Virus record (IMG/VR): IMGVR_UViG_3300001919_000129
From: a virus
Taxonomy: Duplodnaviria > Heunggongvirae > Uroviricota > Caudoviricetes
Strand: one strand, 5' to 3'
Length of the DNA stretch: 7,937 nucleotides
The notes beneath the pieces are model-generated. The model was given only the letters and a program-made list of their open reading frames with translations, was not told the origin of the DNA and searched no databases. Position numbers and translations under genes: made by a program. Positions 2 through 7,937 of this stretch are shown piece by piece; position 1 is the stretch's first letter; every line of letters starts with the position of its first letter.

Positions 2-1300
2 ACGCTTCAGCTTATCAGGCAGAACAATGATATTGAGCGTTCAGGCGCTAACAATGTTGGGCTGACTGCTTTGCAAGGCCTTTCAGGTATTGCGGGGGTG
101 TTTCAGCAGGAAAAGCAGGCTCAGCGGCAGAAAGAATTTCAGCAGGCATACGCTAATGCTTATGCGTCTGGTGATCGCGGTGCTTTGCGTCAGTTGGCTA
201 CTCAATATCCAGACCAGATTGAATCCGTTCGTAAAGGCATGGGATTCATTGATGAAGATCAGCGTAATTCTATCGGCACCTTAGCGGCTGGCGCACGCCT
301 TGCGTCATCGTCTCCAGAAGCAATGCAATCATGGCTGCAAAACAACGCCAAGGAACTGACTCGCGTCGGTGTTGACCCCAACAGCGTTGCTCAGATGTAT
401 CAGCAGAATCCTTCAGGATTTGGTGAGTTTGTTGATCACCTTGGGATGGCTGCTCTTGGTCCGATTGATTACTTCAATGTTCAGGACAAGATGGCTGGTC
501 GTGAGATTGATCGCGGAAAACTTGCAGAGACAATCCGCAGCAATCAGGCTGGCGAGGCGCTAACAGCACGAGGCCAGAACATCACGATGCGCGGGCAGGA
601 CTTATCTGCTTCTACTGCGCGACGCGGGCAGGATTTGGCAATGCAGCGAGCGTCAACAAGAGGAACCGCTGGGAATGATGAGCGTACAGTTCAGTTATCA
701 GATGGCAGAACTGTAACGGTAGGCGGGAAGCTTCACGGCGCTGGGGCTAATGCGTTCTACGAAGGCATCGACAACGAGGGGAATATGGTTCGCGTTCCTG
801 CCAGTTCAATCGCAGCGCCTGCAACATCGTCTGCATCAGCACAAAACTATGCCATGAAGAAGGATATCGACGCGATCGCAAATGCAGACGCTTCTGCTCT
901 CGATTTCATGACAGGAATGACAGGCGGTGCAGGTAATCCAGCAATTGGTGCTGATGTTCGCAGCCGATTAACAGGAAAAGAGCAGCGCCAGTTATATAAC
1001 TCAGCACAACGTATTCAGGGCAGAATGCAGAATCAGGGTGTGGCGGCAGCAAGGGACATGGGTGCCAGTGGTATTAACACCGTTGCAGAAGCGAAGATGT
1101 ATTTTCAGGGGATGCCGCAGGTTGACTATTCAAGCCCGGAGGCTATGCAGCAGTCGATTCGTGAGATTCAGGAATACACCAACAATTACAACCAACAATA
1201 TAACGTTAATGTTGGTAAATCTCAGCGGCAGCAATCTCAACCTGCACAGGTATCACAGCCAGCAGCCAGCAGTAACTTTTCTTCACTATGGGGTGATTAA
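2..1300 (+). CDS. Virion ejection (internal) protein, P22 gp20-like by position; 5'-truncated by the window edge
   Basis: Reading frame is open from position 2 with no upstream stop, so the start at 71 in the ORF track is an internal TTG. Stop TAA at 1298-1300 overlaps the next start (TAATG). Assignment is by synteny, immediately upstream of a about 665-aa gp16-like gene and the tailspike. Protein is Q/A-rich with internal repeats. Confidence 0.6.
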
Positions 1301-3297
1301 TGGCTAAAGCATGGAAAGATGTTATCGCCTCTCCACAGTATCAGGCGTTAGCACCAGAACAAAAAGCGCAGGCTCAGGAGCAATACTTCAATGAAGTCGT
1401 TGCCCCGCAAGCCGGAGAAAATGCAGAGCAGGCTAAGCAAGCTTTCTATGCTGCCTATCCATTGCCATCTGTGCAGCCAGTGGAGACACAACAACCAGTA
1501 TCACAGCAACAACCACAGCAAAGTGGATTTATGTCGGATCTTGGTGAAGCCGTGAAAGAAACTGGTCGCGGACTGGTGCAGACTGGCGTGAACGTGGCAA
1601 ACATACCTGCATCAGTTGCCGATGCTGTAACAAGCGCGGCAGCTTGGGCTGGCGGTAAACTCGGCATTGGCGATGGTACATATCAACCAGCGCCACGAGT
1701 AACAACGCAGGGATTAGAGCAGGACTTTGGCCTTCAGCAAGGCGCGCTGACTCCACAAACTACAGAGGGCAGGGTATTTGCTGAAGCATTGCCTTACCTC
1801 ACTCCTGCTGGCGTTGAGAGAGCGGCAACACAGGCACCAACACTTGCTGGTCGAATTGCTCAGGGGGCAACTCGCCTTCTCGCTGAAAACGCAGTTGGAT
1901 CACTTGCTGCAAATAGTGCGAAAGATGATGCGGAAGCACTCGCCACCGATTTAGGCGTTGGTGTGCTGGCTGGCGGTGCTATTAACGCTGCCGGACGTGG
2001 ATTAGGTGCTGCTTATCGTGGCGTTCGTGGTTCTATTGCGCCAGAAGCGCAGCAGGCTATCAGATTTGCAGAGCGTGAAGGAGTTCCTCTGCACACCACA
2101 GACCTGTTACAACCAACTTCCCGCGTCGGAAAAATGGCGCAGACTACAGCAGAAAATATCCCTCTGGCTGGCACAAGCGGAATGAGAGCAACGCAACAGG
2201 AAGCGAGAAGCCAGTTGGTGCAGAGATTTGCTGATAAATTCGGCGAGTACGATCCGGCAGTTGTTATTGACAGCCTTAAAGCGAAAACATCAGGAATTCG
2301 TCGTGCTGCCGGTAATCGACTGGAGCAGGTTCAGAATGCTATGGCTGGAGTAAACATTCAGCCTGTGCGAGCAATTCAGCAGATTGATACTGAGATATCT
2401 AACCTGCAGAAGCTTGGTAAGGTCGCTGATAACGAGACGATTTCAAAACTTCAATCCTATCGTGATGAGCTTATTCGCAATGCTGGTCCTGATGGTCCGG
2501 TAAATCTGGATTTGAAGCAATTAAGCGATCTGCGCAGCCAGTTCAGAATGGACGTGAAGGGGGAACGACCAGTGCTACCAAACCGTTCCGATGCTGCCAT
2601 TCAGCGCGTTTACAAGGCAATGACCGACGATATCAATGGTGCCATTGGGCAGAATCTTGGCAACGATACTCTCCGTAAATATCAGCAGGCCAATGCCGTC
2701 TATGCTGACGAAGCAGCGAAACTAAAGAATACCAGGCTGAAGAATGTTCTCATGAAAGGCGATCTGACGCCGGAAGTTGTCAACAACATGCTATTCAGCA
2801 AGAACAAATCGGAAATTAAGACTCTGTATAACTCAGTTGGTCGTGTTGGCAGGGCGCAAATGCGCAATGGCATCATTGGAAAGGCGATGGAGAAATCAGG
2901 TGGTTCCCCTGACCAGTTCCTTCGACAGCTTAACATCCTGCAAAACCAGACTGGCATCACATTTAAAGGTCAGGATGCTGCTTATCTGAAAGGATTGAAA
3001 AACTACCTTCAATCCACGCAACAGGCAGCAAAAGCGGCAGTAACAACACCAACAGGGCAGCAAACCATCCCGTTCATTATCGGGTATGGGACGGCAATGA
3101 ACCCGGCGACAACTGGCGCAGCGGTAAGCTACGGACTTCTTACTCGCGCCTATGAGAGCGAGCCATTCAGAAATGCAATGCTCCGAATGGCAAACACACC
3201 ACGCGGATCGACAGCGTTTGAGAAAGCCATGCAGCAAGCGCAAAAAGCGATTAATGCACTGACGCAGGGTGCTAAGTCTGATTCGTTGTCAGAATAG
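1300..3297 (+). CDS. Virion ejection (internal) protein, P22 gp16-like by position and size (665 aa)
   Basis: Long uninterrupted ORF, ATG overlapping the upstream stop (TAATG), GGGGTG Shine-Dalgarno-like motif just upstream. Size and position match the last ejection-protein gene of P22-like phages. Has a Q/P-rich linker near the N-terminus. Not verified by search. Confidence 0.6.
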   Translation: MAKAWKDVIASPQYQALAPEQKAQAQEQYFNEVVAPQAGENAEQAKQAFYAAYPLPSVQPVETQQPVSQQQPQQSGFMSDLGEAVKETGRGLVQTGVNVANIPASVADAVTSAAAWAGGKLGIGDGTYQPAPRVTTQGLEQDFGLQQGALTPQTTEGRVFAEALPYLTPAGVERAATQAPTLAGRIAQGATRLLAENAVGSLAANSAKDDAEALATDLGVGVLAGGAINAAGRGLGAAYRGVRGSIAPEAQQAIRFAEREGVPLHTTDLLQPTSRVGKMAQTTAENIPLAGTSGMRATQQEARSQLVQRFADKFGEYDPAVVIDSLKAKTSGIRRAAGNRLEQVQNAMAGVNIQPVRAIQQIDTEISNLQKLGKVADNETISKLQSYRDELIRNAGPDGPVNLDLKQLSDLRSQFRMDVKGERPVLPNRSDAAIQRVYKAMTDDINGAIGQNLGNDTLRKYQQANAVYADEAAKLKNTRLKNVLMKGDLTPEVVNNMLFSKNKSEIKTLYNSVGRVGRAQMRNGIIGKAMEKSGGSPDQFLRQLNILQNQTGITFKGQDAAYLKGLKNYLQSTQQAAKAAVTTPTGQQTIPFIIGYGTAMNPATTGAAVSYGLLTRAYESEPFRNAMLRMANTPRGSTAFEKAMQQAQKAINALTQGAKSDSLSE

Positions 3298-3387: not shown

Positions 3388-3873
3388 TTATCTGATGTTA
3401 CTGCTACTGTTGCATGTTACCGTGTTTCCAAATCCTGAATTGCAGTTTGTATATGTGTCAACTCGTGTTGGGTAATGTTGAGTTATAACAGGCTGGCGCG
3501 CTTTTTGCTCGATCGCTTGCATTGTGTTTACAGCCTGATAATTCAATAAAGCCTGCTGGAATGCTTGGCTTTGTGCTATTTGTTGGGCTTGTTCTTGGCT
3601 TTGTAATTGAACATAAAGATTCTGAAGCTCAAGTCTTGCCTGTGCGTCACTTATCTTGCCTTCATTGACACCTTGCCCGAGCATCTTTGCAGCAAGGACA
3701 TACAGCTTAGGTGTTGGTGCTGATGCCATGCGTGAGTCGTTCTTCACACTGGCATCAAGGCAATTAGCCATATCGCTAAGCTTTTGATAGCGTTGTTCGC
3801 AACTTGCTTGATAGTCACTTACTTTTGCGCATCCAACCAGCAGAAGCGGGATAATTAACAGTGATTTTTTCAT
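3388..3873 (-). CDS. Predicted lipoprotein (161 aa), function unknown, in the sieA-equivalent slot
   Basis: Start chosen at ATG 3873 (MKKSLLIIPLLLVGC...) because AAGGAG lies about 10 nt upstream; the ORF-track start at 3909 adds 12 residues before the signal peptide and has no SD. N-terminus is a classic signal peptide ending in a lipobox LVGC, with Ala at +2 (not an inner-membrane retention residue). Mature part has a Q-rich helical-looking segment and four further Cys. Sits 70 bp downstream of mnt on the same strand. Confidence 0.7.
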   Translation of the reverse strand: MKKSLLIIPLLLVGCAKVSDYQASCEQRYQKLSDMANCLDASVKNDSRMASAPTPKLYVLAAKMLGQGVNEGKISDAQARLELQNLYVQLQSQEQAQQIAQSQAFQQALLNYQAVNTMQAIEQKARQPVITQHYPTRVDTYTNCNSGFGNTVTCNSSSNIR

Positions 3874-3943
3874 ATGGTTAACTCTCCTTAGTTTTTCACA
3901 GGATATCATGAAGGCTATGCCATTTTAGCCGGAAACTAGATTT

Positions 3944-4210
3944 CTATGTTTCCTTTTTATTATTGCTATACATGGTCTTAAGCGTTTCAAAAACCATTTT
4001 CTTAACCATATCAGATTGTTGTTCTGCCATACGCTCTGCATCGTCAATGTAAACGGATGCAGAGCTTTGTTTAGCCAACGATTCTTCAATCGCTGCAATT
4101 ATCTCTGAGTTCAGCGATCTGTTATTCATCTTCGCACGCTGCTTAATTTTCGCGTGGAGTTCATGCGGAAGTCTCAAGTGAAACTGCGCCTCGTCGTATT
4201 TACTGTACAT
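3944..4210 (-). CDS. mnt: Mnt-family ribbon-helix-helix transcriptional repressor (88 aa)
   Basis: Aligns along its full length with P22 Mnt as I recall it: N-terminal RHH strand QFHLRLP versus HFNFRMP, the RSLNSEI helix versus RSMNSEL, and C-terminal DDAERMAEQQSDMVKKMVFETLKTMY versus NDAERLADEQSELVKKMVFDTLKDLY. Start set at ATG 4210 (MYSKYDE...) to match the P22 Mnt N-terminus; an in-frame ATG at 4243 is an alternative. Confidence 0.85.
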   Translation of the reverse strand: MYSKYDEAQFHLRLPHELHAKIKQRAKMNNRSLNSEIIAAIEESLAKQSSASVYIDDAERMAEQQSDMVKKMVFETLKTMYSNNKKET

Positions 4211-4331
4211 CCTTGATGCCTCACCAGTTGGGTGGAATGGCATCGTAACCTACTGGATAAATACTCAATAGTACCATTTCGGTATGCAATCACATCATGG
4301 TTGCATCATATCATTCGTCTGGAGTAATGAA
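4211..4331. promoter_or_regulatory. Divergent control region between mnt (leftward) and tailspike (rightward); candidate operator and promoters
   Basis: AT-rich 120-bp spacer between divergent genes. Inverted repeat ATGCAA (4284-4289) / TTGCAT (4301-4306); short palindrome TACTCAATAGTA (4262-4273); TATCAT at 4309-4314; GGAG SD at 4321-4324 for the tailspike. Exact -35/-10 elements could not be fixed by eye. Confidence 0.4.
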
Positions 4332-6515
4332 ATGTCAGATATCACCGCAAATGTTGTGGTAAGCATGCCTTCGCAACTCTTCACTATGGCGCGTTCTTTT
4401 AAAGCGGTTGCCAATGGCAAAATTTATATCGGAAAAATTGACACTGACCCGGTAAATCCAGAAAACCAGATCCAGGTTTATGTGGAGAACGAAGATGGCT
4501 CTCATGTTCCTGTTTCGCAACCAATCATCATTAACGCTGCCGGATATCCGGTATATAACGGACAGATTGCCAAATTCGTTACCGTGCAAGGCCATTCTAT
4601 GGCTGTTTATGATGCATATGGTGCTCAGCAATTCTATTTCCCTAATGTGCTGAAGTATGATCCAGACCAATTTAAGAACCAATTGCTTATACTAGATGAA
4701 ACAGCACAGGATTTTAATCAGACAAAACCTTACATTATTCAAAGCGTTTCTCAGTTGCTGCAGAAAGACTTTACTGGTATTGAAAAAATAACAGTTTTCA
4801 CATACATGAACCAGCACGGAATAAAAGTGAAATCTGAATGGTATGTTGGATTAGAGAAGATAGATAATACTTATTCACTCAATCTTCCAAATGGTTATTT
4901 TGCTAATTTAATCCTTACATCTGAGATGGACTATTCAGAGTTTGGCTTTGGAAGTTCAGACCCGGAAAAAAATTCCGCAGCGATTGCCGAGGCTTGTAGA
5001 GTTGCTCGCGCAAATCAGATTATGAGCAAACTCACATTCCCGTCAGGAGTTTACTTTTCTGATAAGTTTGATTTAGATGTTGATCGCCGTGGTTTTATTT
5101 TTTCAGGAGCTGGAAATGACGCAACAATAATCATGTCAACGTCATCTAACATATCGATGCACCATGTGGGAATTGATCCTCGCGACAGGAGCAGAGATCG
5201 TCTCCACTGGCACCAAACAGTTGAAGGTTTCACCGTAAATGGAAACATTTCTAATAATGGCGCTAGTGCATCAGCAAGAGCCGTATACACAGCTCCTTAT
5301 GCTACTATTAGAAATAAATCAATTGATCACCGCATCAGTAATTATGATCTTTTACATCTGGTTATTAATTGGCATGGTCATTCGCAAGGAACAACAAATG
5401 GCTCCACCAGAACTAAGTATGGTGTTCGCGTTAGAAATAACTCTATCAAATTAATGGGTTACATTGGGAGCAGCGCTAACAATCAGTGTACTTTGTCTAT
5501 TGAAGGTATGAGCACAACCCTGACATCTACAGCATATGTAAATGACAACACTGTTACTGTTGCTGATGCTTCTGGTTTTGATACGTTGTTTGAAATTGCA
5601 TTCACCAATTCAACTGGAGGTGTAGAGACACGTCGTATCACAGCAATCTCGGGAAACGTTATAACACTTGATAGACCAATGACGTCTGAGTTCCAGTCTG
5701 GGACTAAGGTTGAAGTTCCCATTATTGGGACGTCAGTAATTTCAAGTACAATTGAAACTGGTGAGATAAGAATTGGTGACAGTCAGGCAACTTATATCGC
5801 AGGAAACTACAGCGAAGAGGCAAAGATGTATATAACAAAATACGTTAGAGCTTTGACTGTCACTGGAACATCAACAGCAGAGGCTTCACCGGCTATTACA
5901 ATTGAAGTAGACAGGCGTTCATCTATAAAAATTGAAGGAAATGACACTACGTTTTCTATCTCGGTAAACATAACAGACCGTTCTGGAAGTGTTGGTGAAC
6001 GCATTGACCTATACAATGCGCCTAAGCTGGATATTAAAATGAACACTCGTGCTCAAAATTCAATTATCTTGAATGGGGTATATGGATTCAGCAGCCTTCG
6101 TATTGAAAAGACGTTCGATTCTGTTTCTCAGGATGAAAGATTTAACCGGATGACTTTCTCTGGCTTCAATCACGTTGCACCTGCTGGAGGTTCAGTCACT
6201 GAAGTTATGAAATTTTTTCAGGATGCTACACAGTTCGGGTTTGATGGTTACACGTTTGACCTGGATATTACGTGCAGGAGGGATGGTGCTTCTGCAGCTG
6301 TTACGCCTGGCATACTGAAGCGATACGGGACATCATCAGCTGCACCAGTTGCACAAAATTCTGCTCCAGTAAGTCTTTTTTCAGACTTTAATGAGATAAA
6401 TGGCTATAATGTCTTTATTGGCGCATCTGGTAATAGAGGTACAGTGCAAGTAAGGCCAAATCCAACATCACAAATAAAATCAACTATAAATGGCACTGTT
6501 ACTTCCATAATATAG
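4332..6515 (+). CDS. Tailspike protein (727 aa): P22 gp9-type N-terminal head-binding domain fused to a divergent receptor-binding domain
   Basis: Start at ATG 4332 ([10 protein letters not shown]...) with GGAG 7 nt upstream; the ORF-track start at 4284 is an in-frame upstream ATG inside the control region. Residues 1 to about 114 (through [10 protein letters not shown]) match the P22 gp9 N-terminal domain nearly residue for residue from memory. Downstream sequence is unrelated to P22 gp9 and visibly more AT-rich. Confidence 0.9.
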
Positions 6516-6595: not shown

Positions 6596-6617
6596 AAGGT
6601 GGATCACTCCACCTTTT
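6596..6617 (+). terminator. Candidate intrinsic terminator for the tailspike gene, overlapping the int stop codon
   Basis: Perfect 8-bp stem AAGGTGGA (6596-6603) / TCCACCTT (6608-6615) with 4-nt loop TCAC, followed by TT; the U-tract is short, so strength is uncertain. The complement of the int stop (6604-6606) lies in the loop. Confidence 0.3.
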
Positions 6618-7761
6618 CATCAAGCCAGTCCGCCCACCACTGCATCATTTCTCTGCGCTTATCGAGATACTGAGCATGGTTGTAAATCCCGCGCACAGAT
6701 CCGCCGTTGGCATGTGCCAGTTGCACTTCAATAGCATCAGCAGGCCATTCGTGCTCGTTCATAATCGTGCTGAATTCATGCCTGAATCCGTGACCGCTTT
6801 CCAGCCCTTCATAGCCAATTTGTTTGATCACAAGCAATACCGCGTTCTCGCAGATTGGCTTCTTCTTATCGTTGCGCCCGGCAAAAACAAACTCTGACAC
6901 TGGTTTAGTGATTGAGCTTAGCGTAGTGAGAAGTTCAATCACCTGGTCTGACATCGGTACTACATGAATCTTGCGGCCCTTCATCACACTGGCGTCGATG
7001 GTGATAATCCTGTTTTCAAAATCGACGTTCTTCCATAGCATGGAACGAAGCTCTTTTGTTCTGAGGGCTGTGTAGCGTAAAACTTTAGTCGCAATAAGCG
7101 ATACGATACTTCCTGAAAATGTTGCCAGTGCTTTATTGAATGCTGGGATCTGGTCGGCAGGTAAAAACGGGAAGTTCTTCTTGCGGTATCCCTTCATGGC
7201 GTCAGCAAGGTCAGGTGCCGGGTTATATTTAGCCCTACCGGTGACAATAGCGTAACGGAAAACCTCGCCGCATCTTCTGCGTGCTTTGTTGGCTCGTTCC
7301 ATTGCACCGCGATCTTCAAATCTGCGGATTACTTCCAGCAGTTGCATCGGCTCAATATCCTGAATTTCAAGGCCGCCGATGATAGGTAAAATGTCGTCAT
7401 CAAACATTTTTGCAAGTTCAGTTGCATAGCCTACTGACCAGACTTGCTTCTTGTGCTCGTACCATTCCTTGTAAATCGCACTAAATGAATTGTTGTTAGA
7501 CGAAGCCTTTTTCGCCTTTACCGGATCGATGCCAACCGAGATGTCTTTCCTCGCAGTCCATGCTTTATCCCTTGCCTCCTGCAAAGTCATAAGCGGATAT
7601 TTTCCGACGGTCAGGATTTTCTCCTTACCGTCAATCTTGTAGCGAAGCTGCCATACCTTTTTCCCGGATACAGGGACATAAAGGTACAGGCCATTACCAT
7701 CGAGAAGGCGATATGGTTTTTCTTTCGGCTTTGCTGCTTCAATCTGCTTAACGGTGAGCAT
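6604..7761 (-). CDS. intS: Tyrosine recombinase, P4/IntS-type phage integrase (385 aa)
   Basis: N-terminus MLTVKQIEAAKPKEKPYRLLDGNGLYLYV is the typical arm-binding (DUF4102-like) start of P4-family integrases, and the C-terminus carries catalytic-domain hallmarks (HGFRHEF..., VQLAHANGGSVRGIYNHAQY). Start set at ATG 7761; the ORF-track start at 7797 is a GTG that would fall at or upstream of the predicted transcript start. The intS symbol is assigned by family, size and tRNA adjacency, not by search. Confidence 0.88.
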   Translation of the reverse strand: MLTVKQIEAAKPKEKPYRLLDGNGLYLYVPVSGKKVWQLRYKIDGKEKILTVGKYPLMTLQEARDKAWTARKDISVGIDPVKAKKASSNNNSFSAIYKEWYEHKKQVWSVGYATELAKMFDDDILPIIGGLEIQDIEPMQLLEVIRRFEDRGAMERANKARRRCGEVFRYAIVTGRAKYNPAPDLADAMKGYRKKNFPFLPADQIPAFNKALATFSGSIVSLIATKVLRYTALRTKELRSMLWKNVDFENRIITIDASVMKGRKIHVVPMSDQVIELLTTLSSITKPVSEFVFAGRNDKKKPICENAVLLVIKQIGYEGLESGHGFRHEFSTIMNEHEWPADAIEVQLAHANGGSVRGIYNHAQYLDKRREMMQWWADWLDEKVE

Positions 7762-7797
7762 GGGTAAAAATCCGGTGGGTAAAATTATTTTATCCAC

Positions 7798-7922
7798 TTT
7801 TTACCCGTCATGGAGTGCGGCTGTCAACGATCTGACGCGAACCATGACGAACTGCGAATCTACGGAAGGCTTGATATTCAGGGGATTTTGCGGACTGGTA
7901 CGGATGGGAGCGAACTGATAAA
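7798..7922. promoter_or_regulatory. attL arm region with candidate integrase promoter and repeat elements
   Basis: On the minus strand there is a perfect -35 TTGACA (complement of 7822-7827), then a 17-18 nt spacer and a weak -10 (GTAAAA/TAAAAA, 7798-7804). Inverted repeat CGTCATGG (7806-7813) / CCATGACG (7842-7849) flanks the -35. Repeated (G)CGAA(C/T) motifs occur at 7837, 7848 and 7855. Confidence 0.35.
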
Positions 7923-7937
7923 TGGTGTCCCCTGCAG
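7923..7937 (-). tRNA. argW: 3' end of a tRNA gene, probably tRNA-Arg (argW); truncated by the window edge
   Basis: The complement of 7923-7937 reads CTGCAGGGGACACCA, i.e. an acceptor-stem 3' strand, discriminator and CCA, matching my recollection of the argW 3' end. Only 15 nt are visible; the rest lies beyond the window. Confidence 0.45.

Follow-up and report, generated by a model that had tools for sequence, protein, structure and literature searches.

The window, by which we mean the whole stretch of viral DNA analysed (7,937 nucleotides; IMG/VR record IMGVR_UViG_3300001919_000129), carries towards its right-hand end the gene intS, read on the minus strand (6604-7761, start ATG 7761). Pfam matches and identity to the E. 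coli K-12 protein identify its 385-amino-acid product as a tyrosine recombinase: the domains Arm-DNA-bind_3 (the N-terminal arm-DNA-binding domain), Phage_int_M and Phage_integrase are all present, and 384 of 385 residues are identical to K-12 IntS. Elsewhere the window consists of a P22-like late region, which encodes an injectosome protein, a Mnt/Arc repressor and a tailspike with the P22 head-binding domain, and its gene layout is that of the Sf6 and HK620 genomes.

Between intS and the end of the window lies a short intergenic segment. Counterparts of the DNA from 7600 to 7937 occur at the intS/argW junction of about 1900 of 5426 complete E. coli genomes and are 96-100% identical to it (100% in E. 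coli W4, 97.9% in K-12 MG1655). Sf6, HK620, CUS-3, IME10, HK633 and other phages match the region at 96-98.5%, more distant phages of Klebsiella, Erwinia and Salmonella at 68-77%. Positions 7762-7937 almost certainly constitute the int-proximal att arm of an IntS/argW-type module, the type of KplE1, Sf6, HK620 and CUS-3, and would represent attL if the DNA is that of a prophage.

The arm is closed by the 16-bp recombination core CTGCAGGGGACACCAT (7922-7937, minus strand), which a sequence check resolves into the 3' end of the tRNA-Arg gene argW plus one base. It equals the 16-nt KplE1 core as published, which includes the argW 3' end, and is annotated elsewhere as the attL core of CUS-3 and the attP core of Sf6 and HK620. 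The outer core edge coincides exactly with the end of the window, and the body of argW lies beyond 7937. The W4 and K-12 annotations place a tRNA-Arg at what would be 7923-7997 in window coordinates; it shares the strand of int and lies 161 bp upstream of the int ATG. ARAGORN found no tRNA in the window, which holds only 15 nt of one; these are the final 15 nt of the tRNA, which attP carries as well.

The initial annotation, made from the letters alone, had taken the rightmost 15 nt for a tRNA 3' end, had placed int against the tRNA but pointing away from it, and had likened the arrangement to that of KplE1 at argW. This geometry is supported as far as the window reaches: 7922-7937 is the reverse complement of the argW-derived core, and transcription of int leads outward from that end, with the tRNA upstream on the same strand in W4 and K-12. 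The likeness goes further than had been proposed, as the alignment reveals the same module (97.9% of the DNA, all but one residue of IntS).

How far can work on the K-12 locus be carried over to the window? Alignment with K-12, Sf6, HK620 and CUS-3 places only four differences between K-12 and the window within 7741-7937, at 7868, 7856, 7855 and 7836. All four fall outside the excisionase pentamers, the -35, the spacer, the -10, the arm-type sites, the leader and the start codon, and from 7835 to 7741 the window equals K-12 without a single substitution. Because the mapped elements are identical, the published K-12 starts and operators can be read directly on the window; by extension from the K-12 work, the start sites, the repression and the roles of the operators would hold for the window copy too.

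Conservation was assessed in a comparative set of 30 sequences that covers about 200 nt upstream of the ATG and comprises 22 loci, the window, K-12 and six phages. The 22 loci were drawn from IntS-homologue loci, one genome per species. Escherichia, Citrobacter, Klebsiella, Erwinia, Pantoea, Edwardsiella, Xenorhabdus, Tatumella, Serratia and other genera are represented, and the IntS homologues in the set are 58-100% identical where measured. Mean column identity across the 30 sequences is 0.53-0.58 in the spacers and 0.73-0.96 in the known sites.

The PintS promoter and the start of intS

In K-12, the integrase promoter PintS has the -35 hexamer TTGACA and the -10 hexamer TAaAAa (Panis et al. 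2010, PMC2951348). The window carries this -35 on the minus strand at 7822-7827, where the plus strand reads TGTCAA, followed after an 18-nt spacer by TAAAAA at 7798-7803 (minus strand), the K-12 sequence; with a 17-nt spacer instead, the -10 hexamer would read GTAAAA. The promoter goes by the name of pX in Sf6 and of 'prophage excision' promoter in HK620. The Sf6 record has the feature 'pX; putative int promoter used for excision' over window 7799-7828, and the HK620 record has its 'prophage excision' promoter over window 7778-7827; both intervals take in the -35.

In K-12, primer extension placed the transcript starts at 2464536 (T) and 2464537 (A), whether the promoter was chromosomal or plasmid-borne (PMC2951348). 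The K-12 ATG can be placed at 2464567, because the ends of the cloned fragment, -223 and +64, are also stated as 2464344 and 2464630 (PMC2951348). The starts lie at -31/-30 from this ATG and therefore correspond to T 7792 and A 7791 on the minus strand of the window, where both bases match; transferred by identity, they would leave a leader of 30-31 nt. Mutation of the TAAA within the -10/P'1 element of K-12 brought expression down to the promoter-less level (PMC2951348).

The hexamer TTGACA is not significant by itself (7 copies in the window versus about 3.9 expected), and a generic promoter scan left the TTGACA/TAAAAA pair uncalled, its -10 being without the final T. We consider the promoter real because it is conserved and because its mapping is published, not on account of hexamer statistics. 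All 30 of the 30 relatives have TTGAC, at a fixed distance from the ATG; the mean column identity of the -35 across these sequences is 0.96.

The mapped starts also settle where translation begins. An ATG codon occupies 7761-7759 and a GTG codon 7797-7795, both on the minus strand. As the transcript starts fall downstream of GTG 7797, ATG 7761 is the start codon. Its equivalent is the annotated start in Sf6, HK620, CUS-3, W4 and K-12. In the 30-sequence alignment ATGCT.AC is kept in all relatives, and the stretch from GTG to ATG contains frame-breaking indels. GTG 7797 was rejected as a start because the mapped mRNA begins downstream of it and because of these indels. We advise that int be annotated from ATG 7761, not from GTG 7797, and that a 54-codon open reading frame on the plus strand across the region not be annotated as a gene.

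From sequence inspection it had been proposed that a minus-strand TTGACA at 7822-7827, with a weak -10 17-18 bp further on, drives int, that the transcript starts at or just downstream of GTG 7797, and that ATG 7761 is the true start codon. The proposed hexamers are those of the mapped PintS, and the K-12 starts, at 7792/7791, agree with the predicted position and leave GTG 7797 out of the mRNA.

Integrase and excisionase sites at the promoter

The arm-type site P'1, GGGTAAAA at 7799-7806 on the minus strand, overlaps the -10 and is probably the operator for IntS autorepression. The overlap is described for K-12, where TAAA is common to all P' sites; the K-12 mutations in P'1 that weaken IntS binding also damage the -10, so that repression is not cleanly assigned (PMC2951348). 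Mean column identity of P'1 is 0.89 in the 30 sequences, and GGG.A.A of the P'1/-10 element is invariant in 30 of 30 relatives, again at a fixed distance from the ATG.

A repeat search returned three more arm-type-like octamers. GGATAAAA at 7788-7795 (minus strand; identity 0.80) covers the transcription start, GGGTAAAA at 7777-7784 (plus strand; identity 0.82) has the opposite orientation to P'1, and a further GGGTAAAA at 7762-7769 (plus strand; identity 0.80) directly adjoins the ATG. From their sequence and from the statement on TAAA we infer that these octamers may correspond to numbered P' sites. The 'attP' repeat_region of the HK620 record, window 7761-7786, takes in the two octamers at 7777-7784 and 7762-7769. 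The flanks of the four copies have nothing in common beyond (T/C)GG(G/A)TAAAA.

Five pentamers for the excisionase TorI are present, all on the minus strand, arranged in two blocks of which the second adjoins the -35, and identical to K-12. The first block holds I1, GTTCG at 7911-7915 (mean column identity 0.77), and I2, GTCCG at 7891-7895 (0.73). The second holds I3, GTTCG at 7848-7852 (0.78), I4, GTTCG at 7838-7842 (0.82), and I5, GATCG at 7828-7832, which abuts the -35 and has the K-12 sequence. The K-12 blocks I1;2 (2464409-2464436) and I3;4;5 (2464472-2464499) translate into window 7919-7892 and 7856-7829 (PMC2951348). TorI repression in K-12 needs only I4 and I5, beside the -35, and mutation of I3 has little effect on it; PintS is repressed about 5-fold by IntS and about 5-fold by TorI (PMC2951348). 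Repression by these two proteins, which the initial annotation had cited for KplE1, is thus published for the K-12 sequence, and the window matches that sequence at the elements concerned. As to the source of the excisionase, the window terminates at the core; in Sf6 and HK620 the excisionase gene sits just past it, and in a prophage it would be found at the end opposite to int.

In distant lineages all arm-type copies shift together (GGGTAAA to GGGCATA, TTTACCC to TATGCCC), and the pentamers change together as well (GTTCG to GTTAC or GAAC). Such concerted change is to be expected if the repeats are genuine binding sites and evolve along with the proteins that bind them. The cross-genus comparison of 30 sequences shows that the promoter, the arm-type sites and the excisionase sites vary in step with the lineage of the integrase, and it provides independent sequence support for all three classes of published site. 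A search with the IHF consensus WATCAANNNNTTR, allowing at most 1 mismatch, gave a sole match in the region, at 7791-7803 on the plus strand, which is at chance level (12 found versus 10.3 expected).

Other sources of int transcription and the repeat around the -35

Could int in a prophage be transcribed mainly by read-through from argW, with the TTGACA promoter in a secondary role? The tRNA and int are co-directional, with the tRNA upstream; the minus strand from 7922 to 7762 has no predicted terminator-like site, and the intervening RNA is without significant structure (fold z = -1.29). Against this, strong gfp expression, from the same starts and in a -10-dependent manner, was obtained with an attL fragment from which the argW promoter and the initial 13 nt of the tRNA were missing, and the two PintS starts were the main products of primer extension on the chromosome (PMC2951348). 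That TTGAC and the -10/P'1 block stay unchanged from genus to genus also points to selection on PintS. We therefore regard read-through as a very unlikely main source of int mRNA; a minor share of int transcription in the chromosome may still come from it. A role of the region at the RNA level, be it as a read-through hairpin, an RNA family or a terminator, was rejected on the same fold score, on the lack of a terminator-like site and on an Rfam search of the region that gave no match at E <= 1.

A second alternative concerns the control of PintS. The initial annotation had drawn attention to an 8-bp inverted repeat that brackets the -35, as the place where an autoregulatory or arm-type site would be expected. 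The repeat is there and is perfect, with the arms CGTCATGG at 7806-7813 and CCATGACG at 7842-7849 (both as read on the plus strand) and 28 nt between them. The proposed function is not supported: the arms are conserved no better than background, and they fall mostly between the published operators, which are I4 (7842-7838), I5 (7832-7828) and P'1 (7806-7799). The arm at 7806-7813 is situated in the promoter spacer and has only its last G in common with P'1; it is not an extension of that site, because the flanks of the four arm-type copies are unalike. The arm at 7842-7849 consists of the 5-nt spacer between I3 and I4, together with the final two bases of I3 on one side and the initial base of I4 on the other. 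The repeat is also upstream of the mapped start and so is not part of the int mRNA. We do not consider either arm supported as functional.

Might the repeat nevertheless be a dyad operator in its own right, through which IntS, the excisionase or a host regulator controls the -35? Its perfection and the location of the dyad centre, at the upstream edge of the -35, speak in favour. An 8-mer repeat bracketing that fixed position arises in 0.6% of dinucleotide shuffles, in a test that is post hoc, and among the 30 relatives the arms in register are complementary at 4.5 of 8 positions on average, as opposed to about 2 when slid. However, 11% of dinucleotide shuffles of the 176-nt segment 7762-7937 contain one or more 8-mer inverted repeats, and the excess of inverted repeats in the region (4 observed, 0.15 expected) was traced to the arm-type sites. 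Shuffles that preserve column composition already pair 61% of positions, compared with the 65% observed, and the complementarity in register stems mostly from other sites, namely the CGC tail of GTTCGC and the GCG before GGGTAAA. Where the arms extend outside known sites, mean column identity is 0.55-0.61, equal to that of neutral spacers (0.53-0.58). Arms 36 bp apart from centre to centre are, as a general rule, ill-suited to a simple dimeric repressor.

Functional relatives likewise fail to keep the repeat intact. HK620, by the literature a viable, integrating phage, and CUS-3 each have one uncompensated mismatch within it. Of a wider sample of 119 IMG/VR viral contigs, defined by an exact match to the 18-mer around the -35, only 62 have the perfect repeat, and 40 are alike in one uncompensated C-to-A change in the spacer between I3 and I4; compensated variants were not seen among the 119. 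From P'1 to the ATG, by contrast, 110 of these contigs agree in all 48 nt. The half-sites are thus neither conserved nor compensated in functional relatives, as those of a dyad operator should be, and we consider it exceedingly improbable that the repeat acts as one. The perfect CGTCATGG/CCATGACG dyad belongs to the E. coli/Shigella group.

Just downstream of the -35, a conserved GCCGCAC (7815-7821) stands unexplained. Together with the weak dyad that most relatives retain (CGC...GCG plus AG...CT), it could conceivably mark an extra protein contact that tunes PintS or intasome assembly, an idea to which we give very little credence; such a contact might involve a host factor or a particular bridging geometry of IntS and TorI.

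Virtually no weight can be given to the promoter of the original 1991 Sf6 int/oac record X59553, which annotates ATGACG (7811-7806) and AATAAT (7789-7784) as minus_35 and minus_10 signals with a start near 7777: this is the only pair that a generic sigma-70 scan returns in 7500-7937 (9/12 match, 16-nt spacer), but one site compares with 0.6 expected by chance, the ATGACG positions are poorly conserved (0.61 in 30 sequences), the later Sf6 and HK620 genome records place the promoter at TTGACA, and in K-12, where the sequence is identical, primer extension detects only the starts equivalent to 7792/7791, on chromosome and plasmid, while the TAAA mutation in P'1/-10 (7803-7798 region) abolishes the activity of the attL fragment (PMC2951348).

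A probable self-repressed integrase promoter and its relatives

PintS, as mapped in K-12, is accordingly the promoter to which we return. At this promoter, sigma-70 RNA polymerase would use TTGACA (7827-7822) and TAAAAA (7803-7798) and would start at 7792/7791, giving an mRNA with a 30-nt leader that is translated from ATG 7761. Because the promoter lies within the recombination site, the recombination proteins would double as repressors. IntS would occupy the GGGTAAAA sites through its N-terminal arm-binding domain and, at P'1 over the -10, would exert the roughly 5-fold autorepression. The excisionase, TorI or HkaC, would bind the GTTCG-type pentamers cooperatively, with I4 and I5 at the -35 accounting for its own repression of about 5-fold. 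Repression by both proteins would therefore keep integrase low and buffered in the lysogen and would leave excision to be set by the supply of excisionase. Identity to the K-12 locus and conservation of the elements make us highly confident that this whole mechanism would apply to the window, and none of the data speak against it.

The window's PintS corresponds to the integrase promoter already characterised as self-repressed in K-12, and it contributes little that is new. It is a textbook-level case of an integrase promoter inside attL, worked out on a virtually identical sequence. The PintS/attL region of KplE1 (CPS-53) has the same core, five TorI pentamers, -35, -10, arm-type repeats, leader and start codon, and differs from the window in the four substitutions outside the mapped elements. 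The neighbourhood of int is another matter: the window has a P22-like tailspike, Mnt and injection proteins there, whereas K-12 has the O-antigen conversion gene yfdG of the defective KplE1 remnant. The KplE1 attL/PintS system is reportedly treated by Panis et al. 2007 (J Biol Chem) as well.

Sf6 (AF547987) and HK620 (AF335538) are 97-98% identical in DNA, their annotated promoter intervals cover the same TTGACA/TAAAAA pair, and they have in common with the window the order tailspike, int, att. Their records represent the attP of the free phage, where hkaC (Sf6 gene 18) and a second, upstream promoter, which the HK620 record describes as cII-activated, are located past the core. The Sf6 and HK620 genome sequences are said to originate from Casjens et al. 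2004 and Clark et al. 2001.

Does this mode of control extend beyond the IntS/argW type? In the satellite phage P4, as described in PMC2951348, int lies beside att and is negatively controlled by Int and the excisionase Vis, as in KplE1. P4 Int is stated there to bind at comparable positions relative to the start (Piazzolla et al., via PMC2951348). P4 is a different element, likened by description, and Vis is proposed in the same account to act on the int mRNA and not on DNA (PMC2951348).

Phage lambda resembles the window in having a tyrosine integrase with arm-type and core-type binding and in the need to control the ratio of integrase to excisionase. Lambda int is expressed from PL, with N antitermination and sib, and from PI, which is activated by cII. 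Its transcript also carries xis and comes from promoters on the far side, and the gene is oriented towards att. Unlike its lambda counterpart, int in the window is oriented outward from the junction; it would be uncoupled from the excisionase gene and, in a prophage, would be driven by an autoregulated promoter of its own inside attL.

Recognition sites of integrase and excisionase in distant IntS lineages

Do the arm-type repeats bound by IntS and the pentamers bound by the excisionase TorI change in concert? We compared seven loci encoding more distant IntS homologues (L030, L031, L032, L033, L037, L022 and L010) with window positions 7762-7856 in alignment A2, which comprises 30 sequences upstream of int. 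In these lineages GGGTAAA is replaced by GGGCATA in all four arm-type repeats together, and the excisionase pentamer GTTCG becomes GTTAC or GAAC. The int promoter differs as well, with TTGACT at the -35 (TTGACG in L022) and CATATT at the -10 position. The exception is Salmonella phage g341c, which carries the new arm-type repeats, yet retains GTTCG/GATCG at the pentamers I4 and I5. This combination of new arms and old I4 and I5 suggests, at the level of sequence, that integrase-arm and excisionase specificities reassort independently.

Immediately downstream of the -35, the seven spacer bases GCCGCAC (minus strand, window 7815-7821) show a mean column identity of 0.81 over the 30 relatives. 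The partial text of Panis et al. 2010 (PMC2951348) assigns no binding site to this stretch. These bases are altered too in the GGGCATA lineages, for instance to ACGCCGG.

Possible variant attachment sites among the relatives

Three of the aligned loci depart from the common arrangement upstream of int. At about 1335-1400 of the Xenorhabdus hominickii locus (L027), a tandem array of AAATCCCTT units fills the position that belongs in other loci to the tRNA core together with the distal excisionase pentamers; the promoter and the proximal pentamers are kept. In Mixta mediterraneensis (L023), the argW core is replaced by a different tRNA-like end (…GGATTCGAACC…), with promoter and pentamers kept, and in Rosenbergiella nectarea (L035) a tRNA-like sequence lies nearer to int than in other loci. 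As judged from the alignment, the latter two arrangements may represent att-site switches or a shortened attL.

The right end of the window and small reading frames across the att region

The right end of the window, position 7937, is the exact outer edge of the 16-bp core, which suggests that the source record owes this end to trimming at a predicted prophage boundary or to linearisation at att. The CUS-3 record likewise opens with 'attL core' at bases 1-16.

A plus-strand GTG ORF of 54 codons (7754-7918) runs antisense to the whole attL regulatory region and is unlikely to be a gene. Some phage records annotate a 'hypothetical protein' that overlaps it, Chronis gp28 being one example. On the minus strand, a small ORF annotated in Sf6 (gene 17) and HK620 (hkaB) extends from about 7878 outward across the attP core, and would be split by integration.

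Tailspike and neighbouring reading frames

The Mnt/Arc repressor (3944-4243) is adjoined by a minus-strand ORF of 173 aa (3388-3909), for which a Pfam search returned no match, as for the 665-aa ORF at 1300-3297. The tailspike (743 aa; 4284-6515, plus strand) has a Pfam match in its N-terminal P22 head-binding domain only. Since the best phage match covers just 62% of the window, the receptor-binding part of the tailspike may be divergent.
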